Below are positions 24,665 to 37,399 of a DNA stretch of 64,000 bases, piece by piece; positions within the stretch are counted from its first letter, which is position 1; the number at the start of each line of letters is the position of its first letter. The position numbers were made by a program, and so were the translations under genes. The stretch is from the NCBI RefSeq assembly GCF_050320075.1, contig NZ_CP190018.1, one strand, 5' to 3'. The notes beneath the pieces are model-generated. The model saw only the letters and a program-made list of their open reading frames with translations. It was not told the origin of the DNA and searched no databases. The DNA is from Escherichia coli (GTDB lineage: Bacteria > Pseudomonadota > Gammaproteobacteria > Enterobacterales > Enterobacteriaceae).

Positions 24665-25798
24665 TTAAACCGTCAGCACCACACAGCTGTCCACTTCCCA
24701 GCACAAACGCACTTCATCGCCCCAGGTCGGTAACCCTTTACGATGACGATGGGCGTTTTGTAGCTGGGCGCTAATCATCTGCCCACTTTTCAGACGAACG
24801 TGATACACCGAAAGATCGCCGAGATAGGCAATGTGTATCACCTCCCCCACCGCGAAGTTACAACCATTGGCGGGCGGCTCTTCGCAAAGCATGATTTTTT
24901 CCGGACGCAGCGCTACGTGTACCGGCACGTTATCGACCACCGAAGCATCTACATCGACTTTCAGTGGATGCACCAGCCCCGGCGAATAAAGCACCAGACC
25001 ATCTTCCTGGCGCTTTTTGAGTACACATTCAAAGACATTAACCGAGCCAATAAATTCGGCGCTGTAGCGGGTGGTCGGATGCTCATAGATCTCTTCCGGT
25101 TCGCCAATCTGGACAAATTTCCCACGATTCATAATGGCGATGCGCCCCGCCATGGTCATCGCCTCTTCCTGATCGTGGGTGACCATCACACAAGTCACAC
25201 CGACACGCTCCAGAATATCCACCACTTCAAGCTGCATCCGGTCACGCAGCTTTTTATCCAGCGCGCCCATAGGCTCATCGAGCAGTAATAGTTTCGGGCG
25301 TTTGGCAAGGCTTCGGGCCAGGGCCACACGCTGTCGCTGACCACCGGAAAGCTGATGCGGTTTGCGTTTGGCGAACTCCTGCATATGCACCAGGCCGAGC
25401 ATCTCATTGACCCGGCTGGCAATTTCCGCTTTCGGCAATTTGTCCTGTTTCAGGCCAAAAGCGATATTCTGTTCCACGGTCATATGCGGAAACAGCGCGT
25501 AAGACTGAAACATCATATTGATGGGGCGCAGGTAAGGCGGAACCTGTGACAAATCGACGCCATCGAGCATAATCTGCCCGGCAGAAGGTTGTTCGAAACC
25601 TGCCAGCATACGCAGCAGCGTGGACTTGCCACAGCCGGATGCGCCCAGCAGCGCGAAGATTTCGCCTTTATAGATGGTCAGGCTGACATCATCGACCGCA
25701 TGCTGACCATCGTAGGATTTGGTGAGGTTGCGGATTTCTAATAGCGGCGTCAGCGCCTTACGGGTTTTCGCCTGCGGGCGAGGGATAGCGTCATTCAC
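24665..25798 (-). CDS. potG: Putrescine ABC transporter ATP-binding subunit
   Basis: 377-aa product if translation starts at GTG (plus-strand CAC 25796-25798, protein then begins MNDAIPRP); Walker A GASGCGKST, signature LSGGQRQR; track ORF extends 27 codons further upstream. Confidence 0.88.
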   Translation of the reverse strand: MNDAIPRPQAKTRKALTPLLEIRNLTKSYDGQHAVDDVSLTIYKGEIFALLGASGCGKSTLLRMLAGFEQPSAGQIMLDGVDLSQVPPYLRPINMMFQSYALFPHMTVEQNIAFGLKQDKLPKAEIASRVNEMLGLVHMQEFAKRKPHQLSGGQRQRVALARSLAKRPKLLLLDEPMGALDKKLRDRMQLEVVDILERVGVTCVMVTHDQEEAMTMAGRIAIMNRGKFVQIGEPEEIYEHPTTRYSAEFIGSVNVFECVLKKRQEDGLVLYSPGLVHPLKVDVDASVVDNVPVHVALRPEKIMLCEEPPANGCNFAVGEVIHIAYLGDLSVYHVRLKSGQMISAQLQNAHRHRKGLPTWGDEVRLCWEVDSCVVLTV

Positions 25799-25892
25799 GG
25801 CAGCTCTCCGGCATTGAATGTGTGCAAGCGCACCATAATGGTGCGAATTGCCGGCGGGTGTGGTGCGCCCGTCCGGCATCTACGACTGCGGA

Positions 25893-27005
25893 TTATTTTC
25901 CGCTCTTCACTTTGGTCCACGCGCGGGTGCGCACACGGTCGATTTTCGGATCCTGTACTTTCAGAGTGAACAGCTTCGCACGAACATCCGCAGGCGGGTA
26001 AATACCCGGGTTATCACGGACTTCCGCACTCACCAGCGGCGTAGCTGCTTTATTGGCGTTAGCATAGAACACATGGTCGGAAATATGCGCCACCACATCC
26101 GGGCGCAGCAGGTAATTCAGGAACTGATAGGCTTCGTCTTTATTTTTGGCATCCGCAGGCATGGCGAAGACATCAAAGAACGCCATCGCCCCTTCTTTCG
26201 GAATCGAGAACGAGACATTAACGCCATTCTTCGCTTCCTTCGCGCGGTTTGACGCCTGCCAGACATCGCCCGCCCAGCCAATAGCGACGCAGATATCGCC
26301 GTTTGCCAGGTCGTTAATGTATTGCGATGAATGGAAATAACGAATGTTCGGGCGCAGCTTTAACAGCAGATCGGTTGCCGGTCCGGTGTAATCATCTGCT
26401 TTAGTGCTGTTGGGATCTTTACCGAGATAATTCAGCACGGTAGCAAACACTTCTTCCGGTGCATCAAGGAAAGAGACGCCGCAGCTTTTCAGTTTTTCCA
26501 GATTTTCAGGCTTGAGGATCAAGTCCCAGCTATCGACGGGCGCGTTTTCGCCCAGCACCGCTTTAACTTTATCAACGTTATAGCCAATCCCGGTCGTCGC
26601 CCACATATAGGGCATAGCAAATTTATTATCCGGGTCGTGTTTGGCAACCAACTTCAGCAGTTCCGGGTCGAGATTCTTCCACTCCGGCAATTTACTTTTA
26701 TCCAGCGGCTGGAAAACTCCCGCAGTCAACTGGCGTTCAAGAAAGCTTGCTGACGGCACCACCAGGTCAAAGCCGGTGCTACCCGCCATTAATTTGCCTT
26801 CCAGTACTTCGTTAGAGTCGAAAACATCGTAGACGACTTTAATACCGGTTTCTTTTTCAAAATTGGCCACCGTGTCCGGGGCGATATAATCAGACCAGTT
26901 ATAAATGTGGAGTGTTTTTTGTTCAGCCGCGAGCGTGCCGACAGAGACGGCCATCAGAGCACCCGCAACCAGACCCGATAGCCATTTTTTATTTAAGGCG
27001 GTCAT
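25893..27005 (-). CDS. potF: Putrescine-binding periplasmic protein
   Basis: 370 aa from ATG at 27005 (MTALNKKWLSGLVAGALMAVSVGTLA signal peptide); track ORF is a 50-codon upstream extension. Confidence 0.92.
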   Translation of the reverse strand: MTALNKKWLSGLVAGALMAVSVGTLAAEQKTLHIYNWSDYIAPDTVANFEKETGIKVVYDVFDSNEVLEGKLMAGSTGFDLVVPSASFLERQLTAGVFQPLDKSKLPEWKNLDPELLKLVAKHDPDNKFAMPYMWATTGIGYNVDKVKAVLGENAPVDSWDLILKPENLEKLKSCGVSFLDAPEEVFATVLNYLGKDPNSTKADDYTGPATDLLLKLRPNIRYFHSSQYINDLANGDICVAIGWAGDVWQASNRAKEAKNGVNVSFSIPKEGAMAFFDVFAMPADAKNKDEAYQFLNYLLRPDVVAHISDHVFYANANKAATPLVSAEVRDNPGIYPPADVRAKLFTLKVQDPKIDRVRTRAWTKVKSGK

Positions 27006-27064
27006 ATCTCTTTCCTTCTGAAAGTTCGTTAACAAACGAACAAAAGTTGTCACACTGAAAGATA

Positions 27065-27080
27065 TGCAATAAACGTGCAT
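27065..27080 (-). promoter_or_regulatory. Candidate sigma-54 (-24/-12)-type promoter upstream of potF
   Basis: Minus-strand reading ATGCAC-GTTTA-TTGCA approximates GGCAC-N5-TTGC; nitrogen regulation of potFGHI is from memory. Confidence 0.25.
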
Positions 27081-27355
27081 ATTTTTTATCGGCGCGGTGT
27101 AAGAAAAGAGAACTCTCTCCCGGCCAGCACTGCTCGCTATATAAAAGCATCGCAAGAATAACTTTAGCCAGGGTTTGAGACTATAGCTCGGATTAAAAAA
27201 CGGTATTTAACAAATTTTTATGCGTATTTGCTCTATGTGATAAAGCCAAATCGGCACAAGAGAAGTGAAATAATCTTTAAGAAAAGGTTAAAAACAGCAG
27301 ATAATTTTGCAGCACGCAGTCACTGCGGCAGCGACTGCGTACTCGAAAGGAGTTA

Positions 27356-27832
27356 TCAGTGGAGGAAATAGTTTTCGGTAACGTTGTTTTGCCCTTCATC
27401 GTCAGTCGGTAACAGCAGTTGATGGGCATTAGCTTCAAGAATGACCATCGAAATCTGCTCTTCGCTCTGACGCACGAACCATGCAAACTGCTCATAGGTT
27501 ACGCCCTGCATAACGGATAAAGACTGGCAAACCACCAGCTTTGGCAGATTATCATCCTGCATATCAAGAAATGCTTTCACGGTCAGCGAACTGGCATTGA
27601 TGGCAGATAAATCTGCCGCCAGGGGCAATACGGCTGAAGGTCGGACTTCCGCCATGGCAGAAAACAGGATCGTGTTATCGATCAGATCGATTTTGGCATC
27701 AAAGACACCGTCGAAATTCTGCATATGGGGCAGATGCAGAGCCTGACAGTTATCACATTCAAAAAAACTCATCCCCAGGTCATCGAGCCATTGACGCAGC
27801 GTATCCAGACCAGGAACGACCAGCGATGTCAT
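27356..27832 (-). CDS. ybjN: Putative sensory-transduction regulator YbjN
   Basis: 158 aa from ATG at 27832; last gene of the ybjC-nfsA-rimK-ybjN cluster. Confidence 0.88.
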   Translation of the reverse strand: MTSLVVPGLDTLRQWLDDLGMSFFECDNCQALHLPHMQNFDGVFDAKIDLIDNTILFSAMAEVRPSAVLPLAADLSAINASSLTVKAFLDMQDDNLPKLVVCQSLSVMQGVTYEQFAWFVRQSEEQISMVILEANAHQLLLPTDDEGQNNVTENYFLH

Positions 27833-28882: not shown

Positions 28883-29605
28883 TTAGCGCGTAGCCCAACC
28901 CTGTTTGTGCAAATAATCCAGTATAAATGGGCGGCTTTCTTTAATGATTGTTCGGCGGATATGATCGCTCCAGGTATCCCGGCGATTATTGCTGCCACGG
29001 GTGAGGTTATATTCCGCCAGTTGTTCGTCATACTGCGCCAGTGCGTCTTTATCCAGCGGTTGATAGTTGTTTTCATGCACCAAAATGGAGGCCGGTAAAC
29101 GCGGCTTAAGATCCGGATTATCCGCAGGCCAGCCAAGGCACAGCCCAAACAGCGGCAGAACATGCTGCGGTAATTTCAGCAGTTCCGTCACCGCTTCAAT
29201 ATTATTGCGCAGGCCGCCGATATATACCCCGCCCAATCCCAGCGATTCCGCTGCGGTTAACGCATTCTGCGCCATCATTGCCGTATCAACGACACCGAGC
29301 AGCAATTGTTCCGCCAGGCCGAGCTGAGCATCCGGACAGATCTGTAAATGGCGGTTAAAGTCGGCACAGAACACCCAGAACTCCGCCGCTTGCGCTACGT
29401 GTTTTTGCCCGCCGGTCAGCGTCACCAGTTCATCACGTAACGCTTTGTCGGTAATGCGAATAATGCTACTGCACTGCAAAAAACTGGAACTGGACGTCGC
29501 ACGGGCGCTGTTAATAATCGCCTCACGCTGCGCTTCGGAAATGGGTTCATCAGTGAAATGGCGAATGGAGCGATGGCCACAAATAAGTTCAATGGTTGGC
29601 GTCAT
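28883..29605 (-). CDS. nfsA: Oxygen-insensitive NADPH nitroreductase NfsA
   Basis: 240-aa ORF MTPTIELICGHRSIRHFTDEPIS...; nitroreductase fold. Confidence 0.93.
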   Translation of the reverse strand: MTPTIELICGHRSIRHFTDEPISEAQREAIINSARATSSSSFLQCSSIIRITDKALRDELVTLTGGQKHVAQAAEFWVFCADFNRHLQICPDAQLGLAEQLLLGVVDTAMMAQNALTAAESLGLGGVYIGGLRNNIEAVTELLKLPQHVLPLFGLCLGWPADNPDLKPRLPASILVHENNYQPLDKDALAQYDEQLAEYNLTRGSNNRRDTWSDHIRRTIIKESRPFILDYLHKQGWATR

Positions 29606-35885: not shown

Positions 35886-37115
35886 CCCTTCGTGCGAATT
35901 TCCCATCTGTTTATCTTTTAAAAAGATAACCATCAGCAACAGCCACAAAATTCCGTTGACAAGGTTGAAGAGATTAAACAGTCCGTTGCCCCCGTTCAGC
36001 CAGGCATGTTTGCTGATTTCAATACCGACGGTAAAGATCAGCATTTGCAGCATCCCCATCGCCGCAGAAACCGTACCTTTACTCATATCGCTGGCAAACA
36101 GAGTTAATCGCACCAGTCCCGCATTCGCCAGACCAATACCGAAAGCATAAATACTTAACCCGGCGGTCATCCATAAATACGCGTGCGATGAGATAACCGT
36201 TGCCGCAGCAGCGACAAACAGACCAATCATAATCGGCCAGCCGCCCATAATAATCAGCGAACGTACGGTGCGGCGCGAGGTCAGACGCGCTAGCAGCAAG
36301 TTACCCGCAATTAACGCCCCGAAAATAGGCACTTGCAGCAAGCCATATTCATAGCTGCTCAACTGCTCACCGGTAATGATGATAATCGGCGACTGGGCGA
36401 TCCACGCCAGCAACGGCAGGCTAACGAATCCCAGCGCCAGCGCCCCCGCCACAAAGCGACCGTTCTTCAGCACCAGCTTATAGTCACGACCGAGTTCTTT
36501 CAGCGACAGTTTCTCGCCTATACGCGTGGCGGTTTCAGGCATGGCTCGTTGCAGACCGAAAAAGGAGATCGCTGCCAATGCGGCAAACAAAACAAACATC
36601 CCCTCCCAGGGCAGCACATGGATCCACGCCGCGCCCACCAGCGGACCAAGTAGTGGAGCAATCAGCGCCACGTTCGCCATTAGCGCGGTGATCTTGATAC
36701 AAACCGCCTCTTCGAAGGATTCCTGAATTGCGGCATATCCCACAGCGCCAATGAAACAGAGGCTTATGCCCTGCAAGAAGCGCAACAGGGTGAATTGTTC
36801 AATGTTTTGCGCCAGTAATATTGCCAGACAGGTGACGATAAACCACACCACTCCCGCCAGCATCACCGGACGGCGGCCAATACGATCCGACAGTGGCCCC
36901 AGGAGCCATTGTAAAAACATCCCGCCCGCCAGATACGCAGTCATCGAAGTAGGAACCCAATCAATGCCCGCCTGATATTGTTCCACCACGGCCAACATAC
37001 CGGGTTGAATCATATCGTTGCCGATATAGGTTGAAAATTCGTAAAGCACCAGACAGAGAGGGAAAAGTAACGCCTGACGTCCAAGCCTGGCACCGGAAGC
37101 TAATTTATTTTGCAT
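35883..37115 (-). CDS. mdfA: Multidrug efflux MFS transporter MdfA (Cmr)
   Basis: 410 aa from ATG at 37115 ([40 protein letters not shown]...); track ORF is a 10-codon extension. Confidence 0.93.
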
Positions 37116-37399
37116 GCAATTTCTTCGCCAATAATAATCGCGCAAAGTTTAATAAAAGCGCAGCTAACGAGAAAGCGAATTTTGTAGCTGAAACCACGGT
37201 TAAGCACATTCTTACATTATCGCGAGTATAGCTACGCTTTCTTTAAGTTTTATTTAACCTATGCCCGTTACAATCACCCACCGTAAACAGGCCGCTTGAG
37301 GGAAATAAGACGATGCCGCTTTACCCAGTTTAACCTGCACTTTATTCTCAACGACTTGCCTGTATTGGCTCCCTTTTAATCACTTTGCGTCGGGAAGTT

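Follow-up and report, generated by a model that had tools for sequence, protein, structure and literature searches.

The motif ATGCAC-GTTTA-TTGCA, which lies upstream of potF in a 64,000-nucleotide (64-kb) stretch of Escherichia coli DNA, referred to here as the window, is the already documented, off-consensus sigma-54 promoter of the potFGHI operon, and is already known as such. We put the probability at about 75% that it works as the known sigma-54 promoter of this putrescine ABC-transporter operon, that it is opened by NtrC and that transcription starts about 49 nt before the potF ATG. The motif had been proposed in a sequence-only reading of the DNA as a weak sigma-54 element for potF that would fit nitrogen control, and the proposal is supported by the literature, in the form of a sigma-54 ChIP-seq site (OS08) and of the nitrogen induction of potG and potI. 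As given, the finding matters little, a catalogued promoter of a nitrogen-scavenging transporter having been re-identified. Two side results could interest specialists. One is the conservation, described below, of a sigma-54 site without the first G of GG; the other is that the operon has a single recognisable NtrC site, which is located between potF and potG, downstream of the promoter, and which appears and disappears along with it.

The genes concerned are encoded on the minus strand of the window in the order ybjN, a 350-bp spacer (27355..27006), potF, potG, potH and potI. The coding sequences that bound the regions analyzed here are as follows.

27356..27832, minus strand: ybjN coding sequence, the upstream neighbour on the same strand (open reading frame list and RefSeq annotation of matching E. 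coli genomes)
25893..27005, minus strand: potF coding sequence, periplasmic putrescine-binding protein, ATG at 27005 (open reading frame list and RefSeq annotation)
24665..25798, minus strand: potG coding sequence, the next gene of the operon, GTG start at 25798 (open reading frame list)

Between the ybjN stop (27356) and the potF ATG (27005) there are exactly 350 bp, and the potF-potG spacer measures 94 bp. The region upstream of potF had been called a 350-bp leader; the length is right, but the term is loose, since the predicted 5' UTR comprises only 49 nt. A 471-bp query over the region matched 5419 of 5426 complete E. coli genomes, the matches being annotated as ybjN and potF; identity was 100% to strain CFSAN061763 and about 98% to K-12. 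Eight positions of the 350-bp spacer differ between the window and K-12, all of them more than about 40 nt from the motif, and the motif and its flanks are identical in the two.

The motif, ATGCACGTTTATTGCA, was confirmed at 27080..27065 on the minus strand, which is the potF strand, exactly where the sequence-only reading had placed it. The two features that follow from it are listed below.

27065..27081, minus strand: sigma-54 binding motif TATGCACGTTTATTGCA of the potF promoter, site OS08 of Bonocora et al. (sequence, K-12 identity, ChIP-seq, position weight matrix, conservation)
27054, minus strand: predicted sigma-54 transcription start, giving a 49-nt 5' UTR (19 nt downstream of the motif centre)

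The start was predicted by the rule used in Table 1 of PMC4591121, where the potF distance is likewise 49. The -24 block, TATGCAC (27081-27075), has T (27079) and G (27078) where the consensus has GG, so that the second G of the doublet is present, the first is replaced by T, and the base preceding that T is A where the consensus has T. The -12 block, TTGCA (27069-27065), is perfect; its GC doublet (-13/-12; 27067/27066) lies inside TTGCW exactly 10 nt after the GG position, at which the doublet expected at -25/-24 reads TG. The spacing between the blocks equals that of the sigma-54 consensus, and the motif is oriented toward potF at a plausible distance from the gene start. The description of the motif as an approximation to the -24/-12 consensus therefore holds, with the spacing right, TTGCA perfect and the second G in place, and the caution that an imperfect GG would make it weak agrees with a ChIP score of FAT 2 and a motif score among the lowest of the bound sites.

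Judged by sequence alone, the potF motif is at chance level. Matches to TGGCAC-N5-TTGCW with up to two mismatches numbered 42 in the 64-kb window, against 44.9 +/- 5.6 in shuffled sequences. The position weight matrix (PWM) scan for RpoN sites that had been suggested as a check was performed with a matrix built from the 134 other ChIP-bound sigma-54 sites of Bonocora et al., potF being left out. The potF 17-mer scored 8.9 bits and ranked 48 of 127,968 positions in the window, and sites scoring this well are expected about 0.13 times per 350-nt strand. On its own, the scan did not lift the potF site above background, and the score was the fourth lowest of the 135 bound sites. Of the 134 other bound sites, 130 have G at the first position of the GG doublet, three have A and one has T. 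That the motif stands above chance is concluded instead because the identical K-12 sequence is occupied by sigma-54 in vivo and because both blocks are conserved family-wide at fixed spacing, so that a reader of sequence only had found a real sigma-54 site which a consensus or PWM scan ranks at noise level.

Two other sites were observed in the same scan. The best sigma-54 PWM score of the window, 15.2 bits, belonged to TTGGCGAAGAAATTGCA (37115-37131, minus strand), which by coordinate arithmetic is the Bonocora ChIP-seq site OS07 (FAT 10) on the mdfA/rcdA side. A second sequence, CTGGCGGAACAATTGCT (29301-29317, minus strand), lies inside nfsA about 480 nt before rimK and scored 13.1 bits; it is not among the high-stringency ChIP sites of Bonocora et al., and an RpoN gSELEX peak named 'nfsA>rimK' has been reported at 891170 with 44% (Shimada 2021, PMC8743547).

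In K-12, TATGCACGTTTATTGCA is the high-stringency sigma-54 ChIP-seq site OS08 (Bonocora 2015, PMC4591121, Table 1), with its peak centre at 892944 and its motif centre at 892939, 5 bp apart. The site faces potF, has a predicted start 49 nt before the gene, a FAT of 2 and a motif score of 6.8, and is flagged as a predicted promoter in EcoCyc (PMC4591121). All 15 described NtrC-regulated operons had a sigma-54 ChIP peak in that study, whose authors stressed that binding sites are not necessarily promoters (PMC4591121). Upon nitrogen depletion, potG mRNA rose 6.0-fold and potI mRNA 3.2-fold, and the activation of both was concluded by the authors to need RpoN together with NtrC (Shimada 2021, PMC8743547), which accords with the earlier remark that potFGHI is reported to respond to nitrogen limitation; the RT-qPCR of PMC8743547 measured potG and potI, not potF. 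The highest RpoN-holoenzyme gSELEX peak was assigned to the ybjN-potF spacer (PMC8743547). Its coordinate, 892632, precedes the potF motif by about 300 bp, and the supplement of PMC8743547 gives it another sequence, inside ybjN, so the peak supports the region and not the exact site. Repressive RpoN sites were also described by Shimada et al., as were gel shifts in which the 'potG promoter' was bound by NtrC and by RpoN holoenzyme (PMC8743547). Elsewhere, potF is taken to be a known target of sigma-54 and to be bound constitutively by Lrp as well (Kroner et al., bioRxiv 276808). NtrC gSELEX in vitro gave a peak at 894130 with 95% of the maximum (PMC8743547), and NtrC ChIP-seq of nitrogen-starved cells gave no peak from 847 kb to 1073 kb, and so none at potF or potG (Brown 2014), a result that conflicts with the gSELEX peak and counts against direct action of NtrC. 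In the literature searched, no mapped transcription start or mutational test of this exact site was found. The classical sources for control of potFGHI by NtrC and sigma-54 are said to be Zimmer 2000 (PNAS) and Reitzer and Schneider 2001 (MMBR).

Statistics from the consensus and PWM searches, together with the lack of an NtrC ChIP-seq peak (Brown 2014), would suit a motif that is a functionless chance match, with potF transcribed under sigma-70 or sigma-S only and its nitrogen control indirect. Against this stand the ChIP-seq peak centred on the motif (PMC4591121), the conservation of position and spacing described below, and the outcome of a simple scan for sigma-70 promoters, in which no -35/-10 pair was found on the potF strand of the spacer, the sole match in the spacer being on the opposite strand and at chance level. 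We regard a chance match as barely credible.

To follow the motif across species, potF loci were collected from 80 species genomes and the upstream regions of 81 loci were aligned. A single occurrence of ATGCAY-N5-YTGCA, identically placed and on the potF strand, was found in 53 of the 81 loci, whereas about 0.008 occurrences per locus are expected by chance. The motif-bearing loci represent nearly all Enterobacteriaceae genera sampled, about 20 in number, including Escherichia, Citrobacter, Enterobacter, Klebsiella, Raoultella, Kosakonia, Phytobacter, Lelliottia, Kluyvera, Trabulsiella, Superficieibacter, Pluralibacter, Mangrovibacter, Siccibacter, Buttiauxella and Cedecea, among others. The N5 between the blocks took 18 different sequences in these loci while its length remained fixed, and in most of the Enterobacteriaceae loci with the motif the predicted start fell 48-50 nt from the potF ATG. 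Averaged over the remaining Enterobacteriaceae rows, identity to the window was 0.93 in the 11 core positions, 0.58 in the N5 and 0.63 in the leader as a whole. The variable positions 7 (C/T), 8 (G/A) and 13 (T/C) carry bases that are common in bound sigma-54 sites. Two blocks held at strict spacing around a drifting spacer are the footprint expected of a two-block promoter. Within the species, at least 5344 of the 5426 genomes (98.5%) carried the exact motif, as counted with a 36-bp query in which every 28-bp word spans the whole motif.

The motif was absent from Yersinia, Rahnella, Pectobacterium, Dickeya, Brenneria and other loci outside the Enterobacteriaceae, and within the family from two genera, represented by Salmonella diarizonae and Yokenella. 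At 60-80 nt before potF, the -12 block of Salmonella diarizonae reads AGGCA and not TTGCA, and Yokenella has kept both promoter blocks with a spacer that is 2 nt shorter (ATATGCATTTATTGCAT). The S5 table of Bonocora et al. scores the potF site at 6.7-8.1 in Citrobacter, Enterobacter, Klebsiella, Cedecea, Raoultella and Cronobacter, at 2.6 in Salmonella and at -1.1 in Yokenella, with low values farther out (PMC4591121), a species pattern that agrees independently with the present comparison of loci. As a separate observation, four loci (Kluyvera, Pseudocitrobacter and MGYG-HGUT-00110) carry an extra canonical sigma-54 motif, TTGGCGAG-N3-TTGCA, of 16-17 bits, which precedes the conserved TATGCA site by about 80 nt in three of them and by more, within an inserted segment, in the fourth.

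All 53 motif-bearing loci have T for the first G of the GG doublet, so that this T is no quirk of E. coli. This is a natural sigma-54 site without the first G, one of very few, which has stayed unchanged in about 20 genera, and the apparent defect looks selected. Equally invariant in the 53 rows were the off-consensus bases at positions 2-3 (A and T) and the T that follows TTGCA, only the last of which was left free by the search pattern. Selection for a weak promoter alone would not fix such specific off-consensus bases; either this variant is acceptable to sigma-54 in no other sequence context, or the same DNA is read by a further factor.

The second of these alternatives touches on a further reading, in which ATATGCA-N7-TGCATAT is mainly the operator of another dimeric regulator and the likeness to a sigma-54 site is secondary. 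The arms of the motif do form a perfect 7-bp inverted repeat of this form, the odd bases are invariant as described, the ygfT site, which is unrelated, agrees with that of potF at 20 of 22 nt, the odd bases included, and several regulators are reported in the literature at the potF promoter. Part of the symmetry is nevertheless free, TGCA being self-complementary. NtrC sites are spaced by N9 and PurR sites by N6, and TGCA-N7-TGCA could be matched to no known regulator among those compared; as a site for NtrC, PurR, Nac, ArgR or a LysR-type regulator, ATATGCA-N7-TGCATAT was rejected on spacing. Sigma-54 was cross-linked in vivo with the signal centred on the motif (PMC4591121), and the 2-nt shorter spacer of Yokenella goes with the loss of the NtrC box, both of which speak for the sigma-54 promoter and make a primary operator quite improbable.

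The 350-bp spacer upstream of potF was found to lack an NtrC box when searched for TGCACC-N5-GGTGCA with up to three mismatches and inspected by eye. The sole match to this pattern with up to two mismatches in the 64-kb window was a dyad in the potF-potG spacer, some 40 nt short of the GTG of potG. This is an atypical location for an NtrC box, about 1.2 kb from the sigma-54 site on its downstream side. The features of the potF-potG spacer are listed below.

25829..25845, no strand assigned: NtrC-type dyad CGCACCATTATGGTGCG (pattern match, conservation)
25810..25826, minus strand: possible second, weak NtrC site TGCACACATTCAATGCC adjoining the strong dyad (loose GCA-N9-TGC match)
25849..25878, minus strand: GC-rich hairpin just 3' of the potF stop (RNA fold)

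The NtrC gSELEX peak at 894130 (PMC8743547) falls on CGCACCATTATGGTGCG, and in the literature searched only this 2021 peak points to the dyad. The loose match of TGCACACATTCAATGCC hints, weakly, at a possible second NtrC site, and a TTGCAC block after the dyad is kept in many genera. The hairpin could be an intercistronic stabiliser or a partial terminator; the fold of the whole 105-nt stretch (z = -1.6) is not significant alone.

Across the aligned loci, GCAC-N7-GTGC occurred once per locus and always in the potF-potG spacer, in 44 of 81. All 44 also carried the promoter motif; nine loci had the motif without the dyad, several of them with near-dyads, none had the dyad without the motif, and 28 had neither. 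Salmonella diarizonae and Yokenella, which lack the promoter geometry, lack the dyad too. This co-occurrence suggests a functional pair, though it is confounded by phylogeny, most of the loci lacking both elements being one outgroup. The dyad is more readily understood as a protein-binding site than as an RNA hairpin because its half-sites are fixed while the N5 at its centre differs from genus to genus and from one E. coli strain to another (ATTAT, ATCAT, AACAT), and because no compensatory changes were found across the loci. Poor conservation of the dyad within E. coli, as might be read from a 46-bp megablast that matched only 1662 genomes, was considered and rejected, since a common SNP lies in the central N5 and the half-sites are intact. 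We infer from these patterns that the dyad is a candidate NtrC enhancer of the potF sigma-54 promoter, and the downstream dyad with its co-occurrence is the one lead that may be new.

No sigma-54-like site of more than 5 bits was found near the dyad in the E. coli potF-potG spacer, where 3 nt are missing between the blocks. A canonical sigma-54 motif facing potG (e.g., CTGGTGCGTTATTTGCA; 12-17 bits) is made up in Citrobacter by the right half of the dyad and 2-3 extra bases, and in Enterobacter, as in E. coli, the same two blocks stand 3 nt too close for such a motif.

Two further features were identified in the ybjN-potF spacer.

27311..27343, minus strand: 15-bp hairpin directly 3' of the ybjN stop, terminator-like, without an adjoining U run (RNA fold)
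27150..27225, minus strand: best-conserved block of the spacer, AT-rich, GCATAAAAATTTGTTAAATACCGTTTTTTAATCC..GCTATAGTC..CTGGCTAAAGTTATTCTTGCG (conservation profile)

The hairpin stands between ybjN and potF, folds at -29 kcal/mol (z = -5.1; none of 200 shuffles folded as well) and is kept across the Enterobacteriaceae. Its region varies between strains, with CTGGTGCAGTGGCTGCG in K-12 and CTGCCGCAGTGACTGCG in the window; the K-12 form is a sigma-54-like, GG/GC-spaced 17-mer of 6.9 bits that is absent from the window strain and lies about 57 bp from the coordinate of the top RpoN gSELEX peak. The block at 27150-27225 is kept even in Yersinia and Pectobacterium and is more conserved than the sigma-54 motif. 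It contains an ARG-box-like CGCATAAAAATTTG (K-12: TGCATAAAAATTTG) and the invariant GTTATNCT. Sites for Lrp, ArgR and ArcA are described close together at the potF promoter in the literature, and the block is probably the Lrp/ArgR (ArcA) binding region; perhaps it also holds a second promoter, of the sigma-70 type. An Rfam scan of the spacer at a permissive threshold yielded no family, with two nonsense matches far under their gathering scores.

Under the preferred reading, sigma-54 RNA polymerase would bind the -24 (TATGCAC) and -12 (TTGCA) blocks at 27081..27065 and rest there as a closed complex, and this binding would be weak because the first G of GG is T. Upon nitrogen limitation, phosphorylated NtrC would open the complex by ATP hydrolysis, and transcription would proceed from about 27054, 49 nt before the potF ATG, on into potGHI. 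NtrC would most likely reach the promoter by DNA looping from the dyad 1.2 kb downstream, which is proposed because the leader has no NtrC box and the only good one is there, and Lrp, bound at the promoter region according to the literature, may help. The start site, the direct action of NtrC and the site from which it acts are the parts of this scheme that we infer. A bolder version is put forward only tentatively, and we hold it to be possible but doubtful: potFGHI would be switched on from inside, the potF-potG dyad looping over about 1.2 kb, with the weakness caused by T for G making the promoter dependent on a tethered activator, and in Citrobacter the dyad would also form part of a second, canonical sigma-54 promoter for potG. 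Such long-range activation has mostly been shown with engineered constructs. Should the dyad be a working enhancer, it would be a natural bacterial case of long-range activation from within an operon.

The same observations may be read in another way, namely that sigma-54 binds the motif in a poised, non-productive or braking manner and that the nitrogen induction comes from elsewhere, either from a start near the potG NtrC box or from the distal Lrp/ArgR/ArcA block. Occupancy is weak (FAT 2), Bonocora et al. caution that binding sites are not necessarily promoters (PMC4591121), and Shimada et al. described repressive RpoN sites, worked with the 'potG promoter' in gel shifts and measured only potG and potI mRNA (PMC8743547). 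The canonical sigma-54 motif of Citrobacter overlaps the NtrC box and faces potG, and the block at 27150-27225 exceeds the motif in conservation. On the other hand, the E. coli potF-potG spacer holds no sigma-54-like site above 5 bits, the spacing of the potF motif is exact in about 20 genera while the spacer sequence drifts, which is hard to explain for a useless site, and motif and NtrC box are lost together in Yokenella and Salmonella. We consider this reading unlikely, and retain that of a productive, NtrC-opened potF promoter.

The closest known counterpart of the element is the potF promoter of E. coli K-12 itself (predicted in EcoCyc; OS08), with which it agrees in the 17-mer, the orientation and the 49-nt distance to the ATG, the window strain differing from it only at the eight other spacer positions. 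The classical E. coli promoters glnAp2, glnHp2 and glnK share the -24/-12 geometry, the control by nitrogen limitation and the activator NtrC that are proposed for potF, and the half-sites of the potF-potG dyad, GCACC/GGTGC, match the published NtrC consensus TGCACCAnnnTGGTGCA. These promoters differ from potF in having a proper GG and a FAT of 6-21, whereas at potF the first G is T and the FAT is 2. Their NtrC sites lie about 100-150 bp upstream; potF has no box in its leader, and its only box is 1.2 kb downstream inside the operon. Weak sigma-54 promoters of the Klebsiella pneumoniae nifH type form a poor closed complex and require a DNA-bound activator, and sigma-54 binding is reported to benefit from a run of T in the spacer near -15 to -17. 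Like them, potF has TTT in the -15 to -17 region. The nifH promoter keeps its GG, however, and has NifA bound upstream with IHF, and neither arrangement was seen at potF.

Only one other of the 135 ChIP-bound sites, that of ygfT (Bonocora OS32, TATGCCCGTTTATTGCA), has T at the first G. The ygfT and potF sites share 20 of 22 nt (AAAATATGCACGTTTATTGCAT at potF, 27060-27085; AATATATGCCCGTTTATTGCAT at ygfT) with no similarity outside the 22 nt, and like potF the ygfT site has a low motif score, as well as a low FAT of 3. It belongs to a different operon, in a purine-catabolism neighbourhood, and is poorly conserved in other genera according to the S5 table of Bonocora et al. (PMC4591121). Finally, potF may be compared with the intragenic sigma-54 promoter of relA, which lies inside rlmD (Brown 2014; Bonocora IS32). 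Binding of NtrC was detected by ChIP-seq at relA and not at potF/potG (Brown 2014), but the relA promoter also has a FAT of 2 and yet gives rise to a functional, NtrC-dependent transcript.
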